Assembly (NCBI GenBank): GCA_030754595.1
Contig: JASLZZ010000045.1
Coordinates: forward strand, 1 to 48,787
Reading direction: 5' to 3'
Source: Nitrospinota bacterium
GTDB lineage: Bacteria > UBA8248
Length of the DNA: 48,787 nucleotides
Positions 5,622-30,767 of this stretch are shown piece after piece (the stretch's first letter is position 1; every line of letters begins with the position of its first letter). Made by a program: the position numbers and the translations under genes. The notes under the pieces were generated by a model. The model was not told the DNA's origin. It saw nothing but the letters and a program-made list of their open reading frames with translations, and searched no databases.

Positions 5622-6509
5622 TTAAAGCGCGCCGAGCGCCTTCAGAACTTTCCTCACCTCGGTCCTCCCCTCCTTCGGGAGGGGCGCCTGGGGCGGCAGG
5701 GGCGGGCCGACGTCGAAGCCCTGCATCCCGAGGCCGGCCTTGATGCAGGCGGCGAGGTTGTATTTCGCGAAGGCCTGGTTCAGCCGCCACATCTCGCGCT
5801 GGAGGGGCAGGGCCTCCTCCCACTTTTTTTCGGCCGCCAGCTCGTAGAGGCGGACGCTCTGCTCCGGGACGAGGCAAGCCGGGCCCGCCATCCACCCGAC
5901 GCCGCCGATGAGCATGACGCAGAGGGGGATGTGGGCCGAGGCGCTGAAGATTTTCAGCCGCCCGCCCACCCGGTTCATGACGGAGAGGAGCCGCCCGGTG
6001 TCGCTCGAGGCGTCCTTGAGGTAGCGGACGTTGGGCACGCGGGCGAGGCGTTCGATCACGCCGGGGGTGAGGTCGCCGCGCGAGAAGTTCGGGTTCGTGT
6101 AGAGGACGACCGGGCAGGAGACGGCGCGGGCGATCCCCCGGAAGTAGCTTTCGACCCCCTCGGGCGGGACGGGGAAGTAGGTCTCCATGATGGCGAGGAT
6201 ACCGTCCGCGCCCATCCGCTCGTAGTCCTTCGCCTGGCGGACGGCGTCCTGCGTCGAGGCCGAGGCCACGCCCGCCACGACGGGGACGCGCCCCGCGCAG
6301 GCGTCGACCGTGACCTCCACGATCTTTCTGCGCTGTCCCTCGGTGAGGTAGGCGAACTCGCCCGTGCTCCCCAAGGGGGTGAGGCCGTGAACGCCCGCTT
6401 TGACGAGGCGGCCCACGAGACGCCTGAGGACGCCCGTCCTCACCCGGCCCCCGGCGTCGACCGGGGAGACGAGATAGGGAAACACGCCGTGGAAACCGTG
6501 AGTGGGCAT
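5622..6509 (-). CDS. dihydrodipicolinate synthase (DapA/NanA) family aldolase
   Basis: LGSTGEF, VPVVAGV, LYTNP, YLKDAS (Schiff-base Lys); real start ATG 6509, 4 nt after the stop of the upstream Rdx gene. Confidence 0.9.
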
Positions 6510-6513
6510 CCGG

Positions 6514-6750
6514 TCAGGAATCCTCCCGCACCATCCGGACGATGTCCGCGCTGTCGGGGAACCGGCCCTGCTCGAAGTGGGAGAAGAGCATCTTGCCGTC
6601 GAGGGTGACCTCGAAGGCGCCGGTGCGGTACTCGCCACCCGCGTTGCCGGCGATCTCGATGTCGGGAAACTCGGCTTTCACGGCTTGAGCCAACTGCTCA
6701 AACTGGGGGCGGTAGTTTCACCTCTCGCAGTATTCGACGTGCATTTTCAT
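6514..6750 (-). CDS. Rdx/SelW(SelT/SelH)-family selenoprotein, CxxU motif (TGA 6720..6718 read as Sec), 78 aa
   Basis: Manual translation: [78 protein letters not shown]. Family motifs YCxxU, GAFEV, GRFP; AGGAG RBS; hairpin after the TGA. Absent from the ORF track. Confidence 0.9.
6685..6720 (-). promoter_or_regulatory. putative bacterial SECIS element of the Rdx/SelW gene
   Basis: UGA, 16 nt, then stem UUGAGC / GCUCAA closing the loop AGUUG (G at loop position 2). Confidence 0.65.
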
Positions 6751-7049
6751 GGCGGTGACGCTCTCCTGATTCGGGCTCTCACGCGGTCTTCCCCGGCCAG
6801 AGGGGAATCATACCCGAGAGCGCCGGGGCGGGGAAATTCGCCCCGTGCGCCTGCGGCGCGCTCGTCAAGTGCTCAAAAACCGGCCCAGGCCTCGGAGCTT
6901 GTTTGTGAAAGCCGGCCGCGGGCGCTCGGCGCCAGTTCCCCCGGGTCCGGCTCTAAAACCCCCGATCACCCTTGACTTCGGGGGCGAGCGGGGGAAATGA
7001 TGCTCCGTTTTGAATCCATCTTTTCCTATTCATTTTCGCTGGAGCAATC

Positions 7050-8462
7050 ATGGCCGGAATCATCAGCGCGGGGGCCTACGTCCCCTTCCAACGCCTGGAG
7101 GGCGCCGCCGTCCGGGGGGTCTGGGGGGCCGGAAACCCCAAGGCGTCGCGCCCGCTGGCGGGCTTCGACGAAGACCCGATCACGATGGGCACGGAGGCGC
7201 TCATCAACGCGGGCGGCTGGGGCGGGATTGACCTGGACGCCCTCTACTTCGCCTCGACGAGCGCCCCCTACGCCGAGAAATCGAGCGCGGCGGTGGTGGC
7301 CGCGGCGGCGGACGTTCCCGAGAGCGCCTTCACGGCGGACATGGGGGGCTCCCTCCGCGCGGGCACGGCGGCGCTGCGCGTGGCGCTCGACGCGGTGAAG
7401 GCCGGCTCGGCGAAGCGGGCGGCGGTGGTGGCCTCGGAGATGCGCCCCGCGCGCGCCGGGGGGCCGGACGAACTCGCCCTCTGCGACGGGGCGGCGGCGC
7501 TGATCGTCGGCAATGGGGGCGAGGGAGACGAGGTGGCCGCCGAGGTCGAGGCGGTTTATTCGTGGACCGAGGATTTCATCGACCGCTGGCGCCTTCCGGG
7601 CGAGGACCAGGTCTCGGCCGGTGACGCCAAGTTCATTCAGGATTACGGCTACGTCCGCCAGACGGCGGCGACGGTGGAGGGGCTGCTCGCGGGGGCCGGC
7701 GCGACGCGGGAGGACGTGGGCCGGGTGCTGATCTATGCGCCCGACGCGCGGACGCACGCCGCGATCTGCCGCAAGCTGGGCTTTCCCGCCGATGCCTACC
7801 CTGAACTGCCCCTCGTGGCGCGGATGGGGGACGCCGGGGCGGCGGCCCCGCTGCTCGTCCTCTCGGAGGCCCTCCAGAGCGCCGAGCCGGGCGAGCACAT
7901 CCTCATCGCCGGGCACGGCAGCGGGGGCGACGCCTTCCTCCTCCGGGCGACGGACCGCGTGGCCGAACTCAAGGAGCGGCGCGGGGTGGCCTGGTGCGCC
8001 GGGCGGACGCGGCCGATCTCGAACTACGGAAAGTTCCTCCGCTCGCGCGAGCTCGTCGCGGGCGAGGAGCTGAACATCTTCAGCTCGCCCAGCATCCTAT
8101 GGAAGGAAAGCCGCCAGACGATGCGGCTCATGGCGGGCAAGTGCCGGTGCTGCGGGGAGATCCAGTTCCCCCGCCAGCGGCTCTGCACGAACTGCAACGC
8201 GCGCGACGATTGGGACGAGGTGAAACTCGGGCGGCTGGGAACCATCTACACCTTCGTCCACGATCACCTCCCCCCCTCGCCCGATGGCTACGTGACGATG
8301 GCCTCGGTGGACATCGAGGGCGGCGGGCGGCTCTACGGGCAGATGACCGACTGCGACAAGGAGGCGGTCAGCGTGGGGGCCCCGGTCGAGATGACCTTCC
8401 GCCTTCTCCACAAGGGCGAGGGATACTATAATTACTACTGGAAGTTCCGGCCGGCCGAATGA
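7050..8462 (+). CDS. HMG-CoA synthase/FabH-like domain fused to DUF35 (Zn-ribbon + OB-fold); PhlA-PhlB-like fusion
   Basis: N-terminal GAYVP..R, DEDPITM, FASTSAPYAEK, GHGSGGDA; catalytic-Cys position reads GSLRAG; C-terminal CRCCG..FP....CTNC plus OB-fold ending YYWKFRP. Confidence 0.88.
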   Translation: MAGIISAGAYVPFQRLEGAAVRGVWGAGNPKASRPLAGFDEDPITMGTEALINAGGWGGIDLDALYFASTSAPYAEKSSAAVVAAAADVPESAFTADMGGSLRAGTAALRVALDAVKAGSAKRAAVVASEMRPARAGGPDELALCDGAAALIVGNGGEGDEVAAEVEAVYSWTEDFIDRWRLPGEDQVSAGDAKFIQDYGYVRQTAATVEGLLAGAGATREDVGRVLIYAPDARTHAAICRKLGFPADAYPELPLVARMGDAGAAAPLLVLSEALQSAEPGEHILIAGHGSGGDAFLLRATDRVAELKERRGVAWCAGRTRPISNYGKFLRSRELVAGEELNIFSSPSILWKESRQTMRLMAGKCRCCGEIQFPRQRLCTNCNARDDWDEVKLGRLGTIYTFVHDHLPPSPDGYVTMASVDIEGGGRLYGQMTDCDKEAVSVGAPVEMTFRLLHKGEGYYNYYWKFRPAE

Positions 8463-8505
8463 CCCGGGAAACAGCGGCCGCGAAATTTCACACGAGGAGA
8501 TCATC

Positions 8506-9702
8506 ATGAACCAAAGCATCGCCGGAAAAGTCGCCATCATCGGCGTGGGAACGACGAAGTTCGGAGAGCTCTTCGAGCAGACCTATAACGACCTCGTCGT
8601 CGAGTCCACCTTCGAGGCCTACGACGACGCGGGCATCACCGGAGACGACATCGAGGCCGCCTGGCTGGGCTGCTACCTCCCGCTCGGCTGGGGCTACGAC
8701 GGCACCGGCGGACCGGCGCTCGCCGAGGCGCTGAACCTTTACCCCAAGCCCATATCGCGGGTCTCGAACTACTGCACGACCGGGATGGAGGCCGTCCGCA
8801 ACGCGGCGCTGGCGGTGGCGAGCGGGCTCTACGACTGCGTGCTCGCGGTCGGAGCCGAGAAAATGCGCGAGGTGCCCCCGAGGGGGAGCCTCGTCGCCCA
8901 GCACGTCGAAAAACTCCACCCCCTCTTCGGGAAGGGCCGGACCGCGCCGGGGAGTTTCGCCATCCTGGCGACCCGGTATTTCGAGGAGTTCGGCGCGGGC
9001 AAGGAAGACCTCGCCGAGGTGGCGGTGAAGAACCACTATCACGGCAGCCTGAACCCCAAGGCCCATTTCAGAAAAGAAATCACCAAGGAGCAGGTCCTGA
9101 AAGCGCCTCCGGTGACCGAGCCGCTCGGCCTCTACGACTGCTGCCCGACAACGGACGGCGCGGCGGCGGTCGTCCTCTGCCGGGCGGACCTGGCCGAAAA
9201 GCGATTCGGGAAAAAGGATTACGTCCTGATCGACGGGATGGGCCTTTCCTGCGCGAACGGCTACATCAACACCCAGTTCAACCCCCGGTTCGACTTCCTG
9301 GGCTTCGATGCCACCACCGAGGCCTCCCGCCAGGCCTACGTACAGGCGGGCGTCACCAACCCCCTCGAGGAGATCGATGTCGCCGAGGTCCACGACTGCT
9401 TCACGATCACCGAGATCCTCAACTACGAGGATCTGGGCTTCGTGAAAAAGGGCGAGGGGCCCGAATTCGTCAAGAGCGGCGCGAGCAGACTCGGCGGCGC
9501 GCTTCCGGTGAACACCTCGGGCGGGCTCAAGAGTTGCGGCCACCCGATCGGCGCGACCGGGGCGAGGGTCATCGCCAACCTGACCGAACAACTCCTCGGC
9601 CGCTGCGGCGAGCGGCAGGTCCCCGGCGCCCAGCGCGCCCTCGGCCACACCCTCGGCGGGCCTGGCTCGGTCTCGAGCGTGTTCGTGCTCAGCAAGAATT
9701 AA
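8506..9702 (+). CDS. thiolase (SCP2/archaeal-type acetyl-CoA acetyltransferase, PhlC-like)
   Basis: VAIIGVG.TKFG, NYCTTG (nucleophile Cys), KNH..G..NPKAH, EVHDCF, GHPIGATG, HTLGG. Confidence 0.93.
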   Translation: MNQSIAGKVAIIGVGTTKFGELFEQTYNDLVVESTFEAYDDAGITGDDIEAAWLGCYLPLGWGYDGTGGPALAEALNLYPKPISRVSNYCTTGMEAVRNAALAVASGLYDCVLAVGAEKMREVPPRGSLVAQHVEKLHPLFGKGRTAPGSFAILATRYFEEFGAGKEDLAEVAVKNHYHGSLNPKAHFRKEITKEQVLKAPPVTEPLGLYDCCPTTDGAAAVVLCRADLAEKRFGKKDYVLIDGMGLSCANGYINTQFNPRFDFLGFDATTEASRQAYVQAGVTNPLEEIDVAEVHDCFTITEILNYEDLGFVKKGEGPEFVKSGASRLGGALPVNTSGGLKSCGHPIGATGARVIANLTEQLLGRCGERQVPGAQRALGHTLGGPGSVSSVFVLSKN

Positions 9703-9869
9703 AAAATAATCGTGATTCAGTAAGAAGACCACCCCGGCGGGGCGCCCCGTCCGGGCCGGTTGGGCCCTGGGGAGGGACCGGATTCCAAGGCGGCGGGGCC
9801 GCGACCGTCAATTTCACCACGACGCCGGAGCAGCGGCTTCCGCCCCGCTTCCGCGCATGGAGGAACGAC

Positions 9870-10430
9870 ATGGAAGGTCCCATCGACGGCCACGCCACGA
9901 GCAGCGTCCCGGGCGAGCGCACGATCGACCAGCCCGAACTCCCCCGGCAAGGCCTCTACACCGACTCCGAGGTCCACACCGAGGTGGTCGAGGGCTCGGT
10001 GCAGCTCAAGCGCGGTCTGACGGACGATTTCGAGATATTCTGCGACGAGGGCTCCCGCATCGGCGGAGAGGGCAAGTACCCCACCCCGATGACCTACATG
10101 GCGATGGCGACCGGCTTCTGACTGCTCACCCAGGTGGCGCGGTACGCGCACATGATGAAAATCGAGGTGAAGCGGGCGAGCGTGAAGGTCCGGTTCCGGA
10201 AACTGCTCGGGGGCTCCGTGCTCAAGGGAACGGTGTTCAACAAGTGGGACGGAGTGGACACCCATCTTTCGGTGGAGTCCGACGCCCCGCCCGAAAAGCT
10301 GGCCCACCTCATCCGCAACGCCAAGAACGGTTGCTTCGCCGAGGGCCTGATCGTCCAGCCCGTGCCGCTCAACTCCACCGTCGAGGTGAACGGCGCCCCC
10401 TTCCCCTTCGAGGGCGTCACCTCGGATTAA
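9870..10430 (+). CDS. OsmC/Ohr-like selenoprotein (TGA 10119..10121 read as Sec84), 186 aa
   Basis: ORFs 9534..10121 and 10134..10430 are the same frame, separated only by one TGA: ...DEGSRIGGEGKYPTPMTYMAMATGF-U-LLTQVARYA...NAKNGCFAE. U sits at the first OsmC Cys and C155 at the second; GGAGG RBS before ATG 9870. Confidence 0.88.
10119..10151 (+). promoter_or_regulatory. putative bacterial SECIS element of the OsmC-like gene
   Basis: UGA, 12 nt, then GUG(G)CGCG-GUA-CGCGCAC: 7-bp stem, one bulge, small loop starting with G. Confidence 0.65.
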
Positions 10431-10464
10431 GAATCAGGGCCGTTCCGGCAAGAACGAAGGGTTT

Positions 10465-10498
10465 CCCCCATCCCAACCTTCCCCCGGAGGGGGAAGGG
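10465..10498. repeat. REP-like palindrome
   Basis: CCCCCATCCCAA-CCTTCCCCC-GGA-GGGGGAAGG, same architecture as 3941..3975 in the opposite orientation. Confidence 0.55.
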
Positions 10499-10532
10499 TT
10501 TTCCTCATCCCCCTCCCCTTACCCCTCACGAC

Positions 10533-10569
10533 GCCTGTCCTGAGCACGGCCGAAGGGCCCGGAATGACA
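10533..10569 (-). repeat. fragment of a GTCATTCCG / CCCTTCG..GCTCAGGACAGGC-type intergenic repeat
   Basis: - strand TGTCATTCCGGGCCCTTCGGCCGTGCTCAGGACAGGC resembles a REP-like class of intergenic repeats; single copy in this window. Confidence 0.4.
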
Positions 10570-10723
10570 AAAAAAACGGGTCAGCTGGATGAGGCGCCGA
10601 CAAATAAGAAAAATAAGGTCGAAATTTGATAAATAGTGAGCGTTGCCGCATAATTCCAGCGTATACGACGCACGGGCGCGAGATCGTTCGAGCAAAAAAC
10701 TTTCCCGGGATGGGAGTACGCCC

Positions 10724-11605
10724 ATGTCCACGACCTATACCACTTCGATAGAAGCGGCGGCCCGGATCGAGTCCCTGATCAAGGATTTCGTCGAGAACTC
10801 GCCCGAGAATTCCATGCGCAACTCCTCGGGCGACAAGGCATGGGAGACTCCCTTGGTGGGATTCTCCAGCGGGGCCGACCCCCTGTACGAGGAGTACAAG
10901 GACCACGTCGGGCCCTTTCACTACACACCCGGGGAGATATTCAACCTCACCTTCCCGGAAGAGCCGGCCGCCGCCGAGGACCTCACGGTCATCTCCTGGG
11001 TCCTCCCCCATCTGAGGGCGACCAAGCTGGACAACAGGCGGGAGAGAATCTACCCCTCGGAGCGCTGGGCGAGGGCGCGCATCATGGGCGAGGAGTTCAT
11101 CGTCCTCTTGAGGAAGCACGTGGTGGCGGAGCTGGGCCGGGCGGGAATCCAGGCAGTCTCCCCCCCGCTCTCTCCTCACTGGTCGAGGGAGGAGTCGCCG
11201 AAGTACGGCTTCGCCTCGCGCTGGTCGGAGCGCCACGCCGCCTACGCCTCGGGCCTGGGCACTTTCGGCCTGTGCGACGGCTTGATCACCCCGGTGGGCA
11301 AGGCCCACCGCCTCGGCTCGGTGGTCGCCAGGGTCGGCGTTCCGCCCACCCCGCGGCCCTACGGCCACCACCGCGCCTACTGCCTCCACTTCAACGGCTT
11401 CGATTGCTTGTCGTGCGCGAAGCGCTGTCCGGTGGACGCGGTGAACGCGGAGGGACACGATAAGTTGCTTTGTCAGCCCCACGTCAGGGAAACCTGCGGC
11501 GCCCACGTGAAAGAGGCCTACGGCTTCGAGGGCTACGGCTGCGGGCTTTGCCAGACCGGCACTCCCTGCGAAAGCGGAATCCCCAAGAGCCTCAAAGGCC
11601 GATAG
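10724..11605 (+). CDS. epoxyqueuosine reductase (QueG)/reductive dehalogenase-like 2x[4Fe-4S] protein
   Basis: WSERHAAYASGLGTFG, RLGSVV, CLSCAKRCPVDA and C..CGLCQTGTPC cluster motifs; GGGAG RBS before ATG 10724. Confidence 0.8.
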   Translation: MSTTYTTSIEAAARIESLIKDFVENSPENSMRNSSGDKAWETPLVGFSSGADPLYEEYKDHVGPFHYTPGEIFNLTFPEEPAAAEDLTVISWVLPHLRATKLDNRRERIYPSERWARARIMGEEFIVLLRKHVVAELGRAGIQAVSPPLSPHWSREESPKYGFASRWSERHAAYASGLGTFGLCDGLITPVGKAHRLGSVVARVGVPPTPRPYGHHRAYCLHFNGFDCLSCAKRCPVDAVNAEGHDKLLCQPHVRETCGAHVKEAYGFEGYGCGLCQTGTPCESGIPKSLKGR

Positions 11606-11807
11606 CGGCCCGGAGCGCGAGAGCCGACATCAAGGCGGCATTCGCGGACGGCGAGCGCATCGCCACCCTGACTCTCGGATCGATCCGCCGCCGTTTATGA
11701 GCGCTTACGGCTCATGGCGATTCCCCCTCAAGCCACCGTTTCGCGCTTTCGCGGCCGGCTAACGCTCTCTCCTCGCAGTGGCCGAGGCAATTTCAACTAT
11801 AGCGATC

Positions 11808-12779
11808 TCATCGATAACGGATACGCGGGTCGAGCCAGGCGTAAACCAGATCGACCACGAAATTGACGCATACGAACACCATCACCACGACCATCACCAG
11901 CGCCTGCACCATGTTGTAGTCCTCGTTTAGCACGGAATCGACCATCAACCGGCCAAGGCCGTTTAGATTGAACACCTGCTCGGTAACGACCAGCCCCCCC
12001 ATGAGAAAGGAGAGTTCCATGCCAATGACGGTGACTACCGGCAAGAACGCGTTCCTGAGCGCGTGACGGTTGATGATGATCTTCCGCAACATCCCCTTCG
12101 CCCGTGCCGTGCGGATATAGTCCTCACGCATCACCTCTAGAAATGCCGAGCGAGTCATCCTCGTCAACACCGACGAATACCGATACCCCGCGACGACCGC
12201 TGGGCAAATCAGTTGGGACAAGTTGGCTGCCGGGTCCTCAAAGGGCGACACATACTCGATCGGGGGCATCCATGGTTCCCCGAACCATGCCTGAGAAAAG
12301 ATCAAAATCCCCAGGATAATGAGAATGCCAAGCCAGAAAGACGGCATGGCGACGCCGGCGTTGGTGAAGGTGCGGACCACGTAATCGACCCAGGTATCCT
12401 GTTTAACGGCCGAGATGGTGCCCAGCGGAATAGCAATCAAGATGGATGTGGTGGTGGCCATGAGCGCCAACTGAAGCGAAAGGGGGAAACGCACCCTTAG
12501 TTCCTCGGTGATTGGCTGCCACGTCCACATGGAAATACCGAAATCGAAGGTCAAAATACCTGTCATGAAATCAATGAATTGGATATGCAAGGGGTCATTC
12601 AGGCCGAACTCATTCCGGCATATATCAATCACTTCCTGAACATAGTGCATTCCATAGTCCACCCACCGGACCAGGCAAATGTCTCCGGGGATAACGCGCA
12701 TCACAAAAAAGACGACTGCCCCGGCACCCACCACGGTCGGGACCATCAGAAAAATCCGCTTGAGAATGTACTGATACAA
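11808..12779 (-). CDS. peptide/nickel ABC transporter permease (DppB/OppB family), orphan
   Basis: YILKR..., DFGIS, RMTRSAFLEVMREDYIRTARAKG (EAA loop), HALRNA; probable TTG start at 12779 after GGAG. Confidence 0.92.
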   Translation of the reverse strand: MYQYILKRIFLMVPTVVGAGAVVFFVMRVIPGDICLVRWVDYGMHYVQEVIDICRNEFGLNDPLHIQFIDFMTGILTFDFGISMWTWQPITEELRVRFPLSLQLALMATTTSILIAIPLGTISAVKQDTWVDYVVRTFTNAGVAMPSFWLGILIILGILIFSQAWFGEPWMPPIEYVSPFEDPAANLSQLICPAVVAGYRYSSVLTRMTRSAFLEVMREDYIRTARAKGMLRKIIINRHALRNAFLPVVTVIGMELSFLMGGLVVTEQVFNLNGLGRLMVDSVLNEDYNMVQALVMVVVMVFVCVNFVVDLVYAWLDPRIRYR

Positions 12780-13454: not shown

Positions 13455-14435
13455 CTAGACGCTAGACCTCGCCTTTTGGAGGAGCCCCACGCTCTCGAGG
13501 TCGGCCTTGAGGGCCTCGCGCTCGGCGTCCGAGATCGGTATCACCGGGGGCCGTACGGGACCGCCCGCCATTCCGATGAGTTCCATCCAGGTCTTCATCG
13601 CGCTCTGGGACATGTTTCCCTTGCGCCAGGGCTCCATGATCCATTTGGCGTTGGCCATACGGATCGGGGTGAGACCGGCCGAGACCTCGGCCGCGCGGGC
13701 GACATCTCCGACGAGGACGAGATCGGTGTATTCCTTAATCGGGAGCCAGCCGGGCACCTGGTACATGTGAGGGGTGTAGGTGAGTAGCCAGCGGTGGCCG
13801 AGCTGGGTCATGTTGTGGAACCAGACGTTTTCGTCGGCGACGCTGATTTGGATGATGTCGCCTACCTCTTCCTGAAGCCGGAGGGTGGTGTAGGGGTTGT
13901 GGTCGGCCTGCTTCATCGCGCAGACATTGGGAATCTTGACTAGCTCGCCGGCAAGTTCGGGGCTGATCGGATAGGTCGCGCCCGGGGAGTTGAACAGGAC
14001 GAGACCGATATTGACCCGCTCTGAGATGTAGCGGAAAAACGCGAGTACGGATCGGTCGTTGTTCGAGGCGATATAAGGAGTGAGGAGGATGGCGAAGTCG
14101 CAGCCAATGTCCTGGGCGTGGCGGGTGAGGGCAAGGGCCTCCTTGGCCGACTGGTGGTGGGTGCCGGCCATGAGGGGGATGCGGCCCGCCGTAGCCTCGA
14201 GCATGACCTCCTGGGCGCGTTTTCGCTCCTCGAGGGGCATGGACCAGAACTCGGCGACGTTGCCGTCGCTGTAGTGGCCGTCCACCTGGAGATAGTCGAT
14301 GACGATATCGACGTTGCGGCGGATGGCCGGTTCGTCGAGGGTGTCATTCTCGGTGAAGTGATAGGGAAGCGAGGTCCAGATTCCCCGGAGGGCTTCCTTT
14401 GCGTACTCCCTGGCCTCGCCCTTGGCGTACTTCAT
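13455..14435 (-). CDS. DapA-family (DHDPS-like) aldolase/hydratase-aldolase, non-canonical
   Basis: TIM-barrel DapA pattern: GNVAEFW, IPLMAG, AMKQ (Schiff-base Lys), GGPVRPP; start ATG 14435 after GGGAG. Confidence 0.85.
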   Translation of the reverse strand: MKYAKGEAREYAKEALRGIWTSLPYHFTENDTLDEPAIRRNVDIVIDYLQVDGHYSDGNVAEFWSMPLEERKRAQEVMLEATAGRIPLMAGTHHQSAKEALALTRHAQDIGCDFAILLTPYIASNNDRSVLAFFRYISERVNIGLVLFNSPGATYPISPELAGELVKIPNVCAMKQADHNPYTTLRLQEEVGDIIQISVADENVWFHNMTQLGHRWLLTYTPHMYQVPGWLPIKEYTDLVLVGDVARAAEVSAGLTPIRMANAKWIMEPWRKGNMSQSAMKTWMELIGMAGGPVRPPVIPISDAEREALKADLESVGLLQKARSSV

Positions 14436-14914
14436 CCGGCTGATCTCCCTTGAAGTGAAACGGCTCCTCCACCGACAGGTTACCAGCATGGCCCCTCGGG
14501 CTCCACACCCTCAGGTTCCACACTCTCGCTCCGGGTGAGAGGACCAACTAGGACCGGGGGACCACCGTCCCTGAGGCCGGGGGAACAACTCCCCTAGGGC
14601 ACGGAACCTTAAGGCACGGGAATGAGCCCCTCACCCGGGAGTGAGCCTCTCACTTGGGGGGGCGTCAATTTCCCATCAAGAGGGACGATAATTCCGGTTA
14701 AACCGGGTCTTTATAGGCGGAAAACCCCTGAAATACTGCTGATCGGAGGGGGAGAATCGCGGGCATAAAGATTGCGACATCTATGGGCGGGATCGTCCGA
14801 CTCCGGGGGAGATTCGGGCCATGCCGGAGCGCTCCACCGCTGGAAACGGGTTTTACCCCGAAACTGGTGGCATCCGCACCCGCCGCAACGGTCGTCAACG
14901 GAGATATTAGCGTA

Positions 14915-29249: not shown

Positions 29250-29610
29250 GGGCGTTCTCCGAAAATACCTCAGTGCGGAACAGGGGGCCCCGGGGTGATA
29301 CCCCCTCGAAGACGACCGGGCCTCCCACCGTGGGGTGGCCCACCTCAGGGAGGTCCGCCCCGAACCCATCGAGCCGGCAGAGTACACGGCCGGCACCCTC
29401 CAAATCGACGAGGGCGAGCGTATAGGGAGCGTCCATCTCCTCCGGAGCGACATGGACAACCGAAAAAGCGTAAATATTTCCCCGCCCCGACACCTTTTTT
29501 TCTTCAAGGGGCGCGCCGCAGTAGCCGCAACTCCCGCCACCCCCGAAATTCACCCGTCCACAGCCAGTGCACGAGAAAACAGGCACCGCCGCCGCGGTCC
29601 TCTCCATCAC
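29242..29610 (-). CDS. DUF35 Zn-ribbon/OB-fold protein (thiolase partner)
   Basis: CTGCG...CGYCG, GRGNIYAFSVVH, PYTLALVDL; start overlaps the thiolase stop. Confidence 0.88.
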   Translation of the reverse strand: MMERTAAAVPVFSCTGCGRVNFGGGGSCGYCGAPLEEKKVSGRGNIYAFSVVHVAPEEMDAPYTLALVDLEGAGRVLCRLDGFGADLPEVGHPTVGGPVVFEGVSPRGPLFRTEVFSENARG

Positions 29611-30767
29611 CCGCCCGCCGCGAGGATATGAACCGCGCAGGTCGCCCCCGAGCCGCCGAGGTTGTGGGCGAGGCCCACCTCGGCGCCTCGGACCTGGCGC
29701 GGTCCCGCCTCGCCCCGGAGCTGGCGCACAAGCTCACATATCTGGGCCACCCCGGTAGCGCCCACGGGATGTCCCTTGGCCTTGAGGCCGCCGCTCGTGT
29801 TCACGGGCATCGCTCCACCCAGGGCTGTCTCCCCCTCGCTAGCACCCCTGGCTCCCTCCCCTTTGCGGTAAAAACCGATGTCCTCGAGTGCCAGAATCTC
29901 AGCGATGGTGAAGCAGTCGTGAACCTCGGCGAGGTCGATCTCCTCGGGCTGTATCCCGGCGCTTTGAAAGGCTTCCTCGGCGGCCCGGACGGTGGCCCGA
30001 AACCGGGTGATATCGCCCTTGTCGGCGAGCGCCGGCGAGTCCGAAGCCTGAGCCGAGGCGAGGAGGCGGACCGGATCGGGGCGAAGGTCGGCGGCCAATT
30101 CACTGGCGCAGAGCAGCACGGCGGCGGCCCCGTCGCTGATCGGAGCGCAGTCGAAGAGCCTGAGGGGCGTGGCCACCTCCCTGGCCGAGAGAGCCTCCTC
30201 CTTGGTAATTTCTTTTTGAAAATGCGCGTCCGGGTTGAAGTGGCCGTGAGCGTGGTTCTTGACGGCCACATCCGCCAAATCCTCGGGCGTGGTCCCGTAC
30301 TCATGCATATGCCGCCGGGCAATCAAGGCGAATAGTGCCGGGAAGGTGGCGCCGAGGGAAGCTTCGCACTCAAATTCGCCGGCTGCCGCGAGAATCTCCG
30401 CTGTCCTCTCGGACCCGGCCGAGGTCATCTTCTCCACCCCCGCTACCAGAACGATATCGGCCGCTCCCGACGCGACCGCAAGCGCGCCCTGCCGCACAGC
30501 TAGACCGCCCGAGGCGCACGCCCCCTCGACCCGGGTACAGGGAACGGGCCCCAGCCCCGCGGCATGGGCTACAGACGGGGCCAAATGATTCTGGCCGGTG
30601 AAGGCCTGGCTCGCGAAATTTCCCAGAAAAAACGCCTCGACCCGTTCAGGGCCGACACCCGCGTCCTCTATCGCGGCGCGGCAAGCCTCGGCGCCCAGCC
30701 GCACAACACTCTCGGTCCGCACCCCAAAGGAGGTGATGCCGATCCCGGCGATGGATACGCTTCTCAT
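29607..30767 (-). CDS. thiolase (SCP2/archaeal-type)
   Basis: RVEGACASGG, KNH.HG..NPDAH, EVHDCF, GHPVGATG, HNLGG. Confidence 0.93.
   Translation of the reverse strand: MRSVSIAGIGITSFGVRTESVVRLGAEACRAAIEDAGVGPERVEAFFLGNFASQAFTGQNHLAPSVAHAAGLGPVPCTRVEGACASGGLAVRQGALAVASGAADIVLVAGVEKMTSAGSERTAEILAAAGEFECEASLGATFPALFALIARRHMHEYGTTPEDLADVAVKNHAHGHFNPDAHFQKEITKEEALSAREVATPLRLFDCAPISDGAAAVLLCASELAADLRPDPVRLLASAQASDSPALADKGDITRFRATVRAAEEAFQSAGIQPEEIDLAEVHDCFTIAEILALEDIGFYRKGEGARGASEGETALGGAMPVNTSGGLKAKGHPVGATGVAQICELVRQLRGEAGPRQVRGAEVGLAHNLGGSGATCAVHILAAGG

Follow-up and report, generated by a model that had tools for sequence, protein, structure and literature searches.

An OsmC-related gene of a Nitrospinota bacterium, interrupted by an in-frame TGA, as a predicted selenoprotein gene of family NF041052

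The closest described systems are OsmC-like selenoproteins, which were reported in 2005 as three Sargasso Sea sequences of COG1765 with the motif UxxT (Zhang, Fomenko, Gladyshev; PMC1088965), were listed again in PMC9312934, and stand among the families "predicted with high confidence" in Table 1 of PMC13188914, where the family is not listed as experimentally verified. The literature searched for this family yielded catalogue entries only, and no functional study. YhfA-type proteins have two conserved redox residues and are without the Arg and Glu of Ohr and OsmC, according to PMC8945050, and the active site of Xylella Ohr has its catalytic Glu51 ten residues N-terminal to Cys61 (PMC5962072). 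The lineage UBA8248, to which our genome belongs, is also represented in BSepDB, where three UBA8248 genomes are given among the ten most selenoprotein-rich bacteria (PMC13326102). One of these has 54 selenoprotein genes and corresponds to a locus of our set (L046), a 79% identical orthologue of the gene described here, and the term OsmC is absent from the species-list text of the BSepDB supplement (PMC13326102).

Our locus lies in a window of 48,787 nucleotides, by which we mean the whole stretch of DNA that was analysed (contig JASLZZ010000045.1 of assembly GCA_030754595.1, positions 1 to 48,787, forward strand). A preliminary description had proposed that two reading frames split by a TGA hide one gene with a 186-residue read-through product, U84 and C155 as its redox residues, and a good ribosome-binding site for the first half only; these particulars all hold. 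The OsmC-related selenoprotein gene (9870..10430, + strand; 186 aa with TGA read as Sec) is a single frame that opens at ATG 9870, contains one internal TGA at 10119..10121 (+; residue 84, the peroxidatic-Cys column, motif UxxT) and closes at TAA 10428-10430. With TGA translated as U, the product carries D59-E60-G61, I64-G-G-E-G, P71-T-P73, G82-F83-U84-L-L-T87 and A151...C155, the codon of Cys155 (10332..10334, +) falling in the resolving-Cys column, which is Cys in 74 of the 77 rows of alignment A3. A Shine-Dalgarno motif, GGAGG at 9859..9863 (+), lies 6 nt 5' of ATG 9870, and the start codon is preceded by an AG-rich motif in 14/14 orthologues inspected by eye. Ahead of the in-frame GTG 10134 and ATG 10152, inspection of the sequence revealed no GGAG-type motif. 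Two further open frames across the gene were rejected as shadows: an overlapping one at 9857-10543 (+), whose frame is open in only 5/14 orthologues, and one at 9717-10307 (−), for which the best antisense frame is stop-free in 12/14 orthologues, a feature that we put down to codon bias.

The read-through product belongs to a curated family. It matches NCBIfam NF041052, "OsmC-related (seleno)protein" (OsmC_like_Se), with 169.6 bits against a cut-off of 95, over profile positions 3-144 of 144, and PF02566 (OsmC) with 47.5 bits against 27.5. NF041052 was the sole NCBIfam match, with none to TIGR03561 (Ohr) or TIGR03562 (OsmC) at E<=0.01. Nothing of substance sets the protein apart from the NF041052 model, beyond which it has about 33 extra N-terminal residues of lower pLDDT. 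A structure predicted from a 77-row alignment has the OsmC fold at a mean pLDDT of 90.7; it took the place of a single-sequence prediction that was discarded at pLDDT 40.9. In the model, one confident fold needs both halves of the gene. The predicted structure matches 1lql (Z 13.6, rmsd 2.8 over 129 residues), 2opl (Z 13.0) and 2onf (Z 12.9), and the best row from outside the family reaches Z 6.5. Ohr and OsmC proteins, which are lipoyl-dependent peroxidases (structures such as 6mjn, 1n2f, 1nye), have the fold in common with it (Z 10-12) at only 13-22% identity, and they share both redox positions with our protein, but have Cys where it has Sec84. By sequence, the closest solved protein is 3cje (Jann_2040; E 1.9e-31), with which the pattern D-E...G-G...P-x-P-L is held in common. 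This protein, 2opl (GSU2788), 2onf and 1lql are relatives of the YhfA/COG1765 type that have Cys rather than Sec; like the Sec84 protein, this type keeps both redox positions and is without the catalytic Glu. A quick tree of 73 rows, in which just 20 full-length Cys homologues were represented, puts the gene in a 26-row clade (SH-aLRT 99), where 22 rows have the TGA and the other 4 form a single Cys subclade. Considering these results together with those below, we read the gene as an intact member of NF041052 that encodes a Sec-containing redox protein of OsmC fold from the YhfA/COG1765-like branch, and we give this reading a probability of roughly 0.9. Some homologues of 320-416 aa (P0018, P0054, P0070, P0073, P0077 and similar) are two-domain tandem proteins, in which the first Cys of one domain is often replaced by Ser.

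The behaviour of residue 84 across the family bears most directly on how the TGA is read. We searched 41 genomes (40 relatives and our own) with NF041052, and over-cut-off matches were found in 31/41; there is exactly one TGA within each of these matches (121/121), while a further 29 listed rows score under the cut-off and 85 weaker ones fall outside the listing. Residue 84 aligns with a TGA in 50/50 loci that cover the column, one of them being our own gene and some coming from duplicate genomes, and in 7/7 metagenome loci from a scan seeded with the Cys homologue P0003. The TGA-bearing loci include close relatives from Nitrospinota as well as betaproteobacterial and Chloroflexota records, and reach down to 41% identity; being kin, they are not independent counts. 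On the side of ordinary codons, the column holds Cys in 71, Ser in 4 and Gly in 1 of 76 full-length single-domain homologues. Across 125 aligned segments it holds Cys in 102, Ser in 17, for the most part where the segment is the first domain of a two-domain protein, and Trp in 1. The Cys-containing natural relatives come as close as 63-66% identity. The preliminary description had named Trp or Arg in homologues as a finding that would speak against Sec, and the prevalence of Cys speaks for it. As side observations on the family's expansion, NF041052 matches occur in 24/24 same-family genomes with several TGA-bearing copies each, the copies over cut-off number up to 11 in one relative (G003), and they sometimes stand in tandem (G016:C69, G022:C177, G009:C4, G003:C46).

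Might the TGA simply be a nonsense mutation in a pseudogene, or an error of assembly? The assembly is a draft of 138 contigs with 6.43% contamination, and one NF041052 copy of the same genome, on contig C50, has two frameshifts, so the idea deserves a hearing. Against it stand the TGA column itself (50/50 and 7/7 loci, down to 41% identity), the conservation of both halves, the presence of the Sec machinery described below, and the sequencing runs. Among DNA runs, 14 contain 0.95 or more of the sampled words, and 11 of the 14 are flagged as possible sources; run X12 is without this flag, and in it a single contig extends from 9443 to 10768 with zero differences and the TGA kept, which favours a real TGA over the assembly error that had been raised as a caution. 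We regard a pseudogene or assembly error as refuted by conservation, with a practically negligible probability.

A second reading takes the two reading frames as they stand, as genes for separate polypeptides of 83 aa and about 92-98 aa. The in-frame ATG 10152 (M95) is kept in 45/46 homologous segments, and gene callers do report such C-terminal pieces. The second start, however, has no ribosome-binding site, the break would fall midway along the main helix of the predicted structure (residues 73-95) and delete a conserved catalytic residue, and the Cys homologues are single chains. Separate polypeptides are therefore very improbable in our estimation. The split is instead a matter of annotation, as the preliminary description had supposed for such genes: 9 database proteins stop exactly at ...GF83, and dozens begin at residues 85-95.

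Downstream of the TGA, the bulged hairpin with a G-starting loop that had been noticed in the preliminary description is present, and we take it as the putative SECIS element (10134..10153, +). It starts 12 nt past the TGA, at 10134, and consists of a stem 10134-10141/10145-10153 with one bulged A and the loop G-U-A at 10142-10144; the core stem is 10137-10141/10145-10149 (−9.5 kcal/mol), and the apical loop lies 20 nt after the UGA. Four constraints for bacterial SECIS elements were taken from the legend of Fig. 2 of PMC13188914 and applied with a script of our own rather than bSECISearch, and the hairpin falls within all of them (3-nt loop GUA, 5-8 bp, 20 nt, −9.5 kcal/mol). The same script also passes ordinary stops of the genome (136/709 TGA, 129/693 TAG, 70/439 TAA), and in 4/4 spans the folding stability is not beyond chance (z +0.37, −1.56, +0.15 and +0.34). 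We thus rejected stability as evidence, because the z-scores are unremarkable and the rules let through roughly one in 5 of the ordinary stops. What raises the predicted hairpin above chance is its conservation and covariation in 46 distinct homologous segments. In these, 89.4% of cells are paired, and 4/8 pairs show two-sided changes (15 cells), the compensatory exchanges in the stem being of the type G-C/A-U/C-G. Covariation of the stem is 0.148 versus 0.037 in shuffles (reached by 0/500) and no more than 0.069 in slid controls, with the caveat that kin sequences may beat a shuffle control without any structure. One outer pair fails in 24/46 segments, and therefore the real element would be the inner stem. 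The codon of Arg91 is CGG in 46/46 segments, compared with a rough genome share of 0.31. A search of Rfam over 6500-12000 gave one match, to a miRNA model at chance level (22.9 bits vs 70), which was set aside.

The genome also encodes what would be required to read the TGA as Sec. In accordance with the check for selA, selB, selC and selD that had been suggested, selA (551.8 bits), selB (364.5 bits) and selD (345 bits) are found, all over their cut-offs, along with a tRNA-Sec with anticodon UCA (selC); the selD gene itself carries an in-frame TGA. One may still ask whether an altered genetic code or a suppressor tRNA causes UGA to be read as Trp, Gly or Cys, given that Trp stands at the column in one database homologue (P0007, a frameshifted protein from a 1.3-kb contig). 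Yet TGA ends 709/1841 coding-like long ORFs of the genome, the sole tRNA with a UCA anticodon among those listed is tRNA-Sec, the anticodon of tRNA-Trp is CCA, and the SECIS appears to be under selection, leaving a different amino acid only a very slim chance. Because the TGA column is conserved, homologues have Cys there, the SECIS stem covaries and the Sec machinery is present, we consider it very nearly certain that TGA 10119-10121 is recoded as Sec.

A crude read-through scan of the genome returned 57 Sec candidates, many of them false. About ten of these we take to be AhpD/CMD-like from their C/S-x-x-U motif (contigs C30, C64, C84, C105, C109 with 3 sites, C126, C131 and C137), and, by motif again, two are presumably thioredoxin-fold U-x-x-C proteins (C17, C114) and one deiodinase-like (C43). 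Further NF041052 paralogues of the source genome are at C131:5419-5910 (L008) and C50:28157-28467 (L011), both with a TGA and the same SECIS core; the C50 copy, with the two frameshifts mentioned above, is a pseudogene or an assembly error. A second OsmC-fold type is found at C47:12121-12594 (+; L069), where a TGA occupies the first-Cys column (AVAG-U-LTG, UxxG) and is accompanied by a SECIS-like hairpin; it matches PF02566 with 39.5 bits and gives no NF041052 match. An Ogt gene (methylated-DNA-protein-cysteine methyltransferase; C116:3435-3983, −, L071) has a TGA in its P-C-H-R motif and a SECIS-like hairpin, and Ogt is a selenoprotein type already catalogued (PMC13188914). Finally, the alpha subunit of a CoA-transferase-fold protein (PF01144; C122:11719-12525, −, L070; orthologues L073-L082) has a TGA at residue 102. 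One TGA is found in each of its 10 best matches, which are 61-100% identical and include the gene itself, and TGC in 7/7 paralogous rows of the loci examined; the TGA copies are followed by a strong G-loop hairpin, which in the TGC copies is present only in altered form. A seleno CoA-transferase has no entry in the portion of the 2026 catalogue table covered by the analysis (PMC13188914), there is no NCBIfam seleno model for it, and none was evident in the literature searched. The CoA-transferase-fold gene is more novel than the OsmC-like gene discussed here.

Turning to the neighbourhood, the gene follows an HMG-CoA-synthase-like/ChsH2 OB-fold gene (7050-8462, +) and a thiolase gene (8506-9702, +), the latter 167 nt upstream. 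On its 3' side there is a terminator-like hairpin at 10477..10497 (+), which is weak, with 5 such sites in the region vs 3.6 expected, and a sigma-70-like promoter-like site at 10626-10654 ahead of the next gene. That next gene (10724-11605, +) encodes 293 aa with C-terminal Cys clusters and has no Pfam match and only a faint HdrA match; we assume that its product resembles epoxyqueuosine-reductase-like Fe-S proteins. Elsewhere within the window there are DHDPS-family aldolase-like genes at 5622-6638 (−) and 13455-14489 (−) and a second thiolase at 29607-30767. The preliminary description had linked the gene to the thiolase pair, and a functional tie of this kind is not supported by synteny. 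A thiolase lies 5' of the gene in 2/12 orthologous loci (2/4 other genomes of the genus) and in 2/22 loci of a second set; the two sets overlap, and 5/34 loci have less than 1 kb upstream. The arrangement is limited to the closest relatives. At other loci the neighbours include glyoxalase-like, TctC, dnaX, ApbA, hydrolase and restriction-system genes (73 chosen of 205 ORFs), and no gene family was a constant neighbour of the orthologues in the loci examined. Co-transcription with the thiolase in the source genome is possible. RNA-library contigs, the form in which all runs were available for comparison, cover 9539-9794 (run X16) and 9778-9947 (run X15) and weakly hint that transcription crosses the gap between thiolase and OsmC-like gene; the bins over 10140-11700 are empty in 3/3 RNA runs, which proves nothing. 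One X15 contig tracks the gene to 10119 and then continues into unrelated sequence, a tail with no match in the 5 genomes searched; we treat it tentatively as a chimera or as another organism.

How would such a protein be made, and what might it do? Sec insertion itself we infer from the established bacterial Sec pathway, with signal and machinery read from the sequence. Translation would begin at 9870, SelB-GTP-Sec-tRNA bound to the hairpin would insert Sec at the UGA, and the ribosome would run on to TAA 10428-10430. The product is predicted to fold like OsmC/Ohr and, from what is known of the family, is probably a homodimer, with Sec84 in the place of the peroxidatic Cys and Cys155 in that of the resolving Cys of Ohr/OsmC. 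In the alignments, U84 and C155 pair with both Cys of Ohr 6mjn and also with both Cys of canonical OsmC, the latter at an hhalign probability of only 1.8. These alignments point most naturally to a selenolate/selenenylsulfide cycle: the selenolate would attack an oxidised substrate, a Sec84-Cys155 selenenylsulfide would form, and a cellular dithiol would re-reduce it. We hold such a Sec84/Cys155 redox cycle to be likely, with good confidence.

The remaining active-site residues depart from those of Ohr and OsmC. The position of the catalytic Glu is Met74, in a column with Leu in 61, Met in 8 and Ile in 5 of 77 rows and no Glu among its six commonest residues, and the N-P-E of Ohr aligns to P-L in our product. 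Since the Glu is absent from Sec and Cys members alike, its loss is no compensation for Sec. [quoted passage not shown] What the family does keep is D59 (75/77), E60 (76/77), G66, P71, P73 and, less strictly, K47 (55/77).

The preliminary description had suggested a Sec-dependent peroxidase or redox enzyme. The part that stands is Sec at the peroxidatic-Cys column; the peroxidase label rests on the fold only, with no match from the Ohr and OsmC models and the catalytic Glu absent. A hydroperoxide as physiological substrate is the single likeliest activity, with other redox chemistry close behind, although we put it at somewhat short of even odds. Alternatively, in a selenoprotein that is not a peroxidase, Sec84/Cys155 might carry out thiol-disulfide exchange, S/Se transfer or organic-substrate catabolism, with paralogues differing in substrate. 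In line with this are the missing Glu of both Sec and Cys members, the near-invariant residues of the family's own (D59, E60 and, at 55/77, K47), the up to 11 over-cut-off copies of one genome (G003), orthologues adjoining transport and catabolic genes (TctC, glyoxalase-like, ApbA, hydrolases), and YhfA-type proteins being described as uninvestigated in activity (PMC8945050, PMC5962072). The fold and both redox positions, on the other hand, match those of peroxidases, there is no constant neighbour, and canonical Ohr or OsmC gave no match in the genome, so NF041052 genes could fill their role. We view non-peroxidase chemistry as a tentative but serious alternative. A stronger version seems unlikely, namely that NF041052 comprises selenoenzymes other than peroxidases, with a catalytic set peculiar to them (Sec84, Cys155, the near-invariant Asp59-Glu60, Lys47), and that a single uncultured lineage rich in selenoproteins has expanded them to up to 11 Sec-dependent copies per genome, the paralogues being specialised for different substrates in the metabolism of organic compounds.

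Our gene compares closely with the OsmC-like selenoprotein of 2005: it has the same PF02566 fold, U84-L-L-T87 corresponds to UxxT, a SECIS comes directly behind the UGA, and the source is marine. From family and motif, it would be the same protein type as the three sequences of that report. The gene is thus an ordinary new member of a curated family catalogued since 2005, and the number of paralogues, up to 11 per genome in the lineage, is of mild interest. A systematic annotation error is corrected, in that databases carry the gene as two fragments. In addition, the compact conserved SECIS and the natural Cys relatives at 63-66% identity make a clean Sec-versus-Cys pair for verification of the family, and this pair could reveal the role of the YhfA-like OsmC branch, which so far has no assigned activity.
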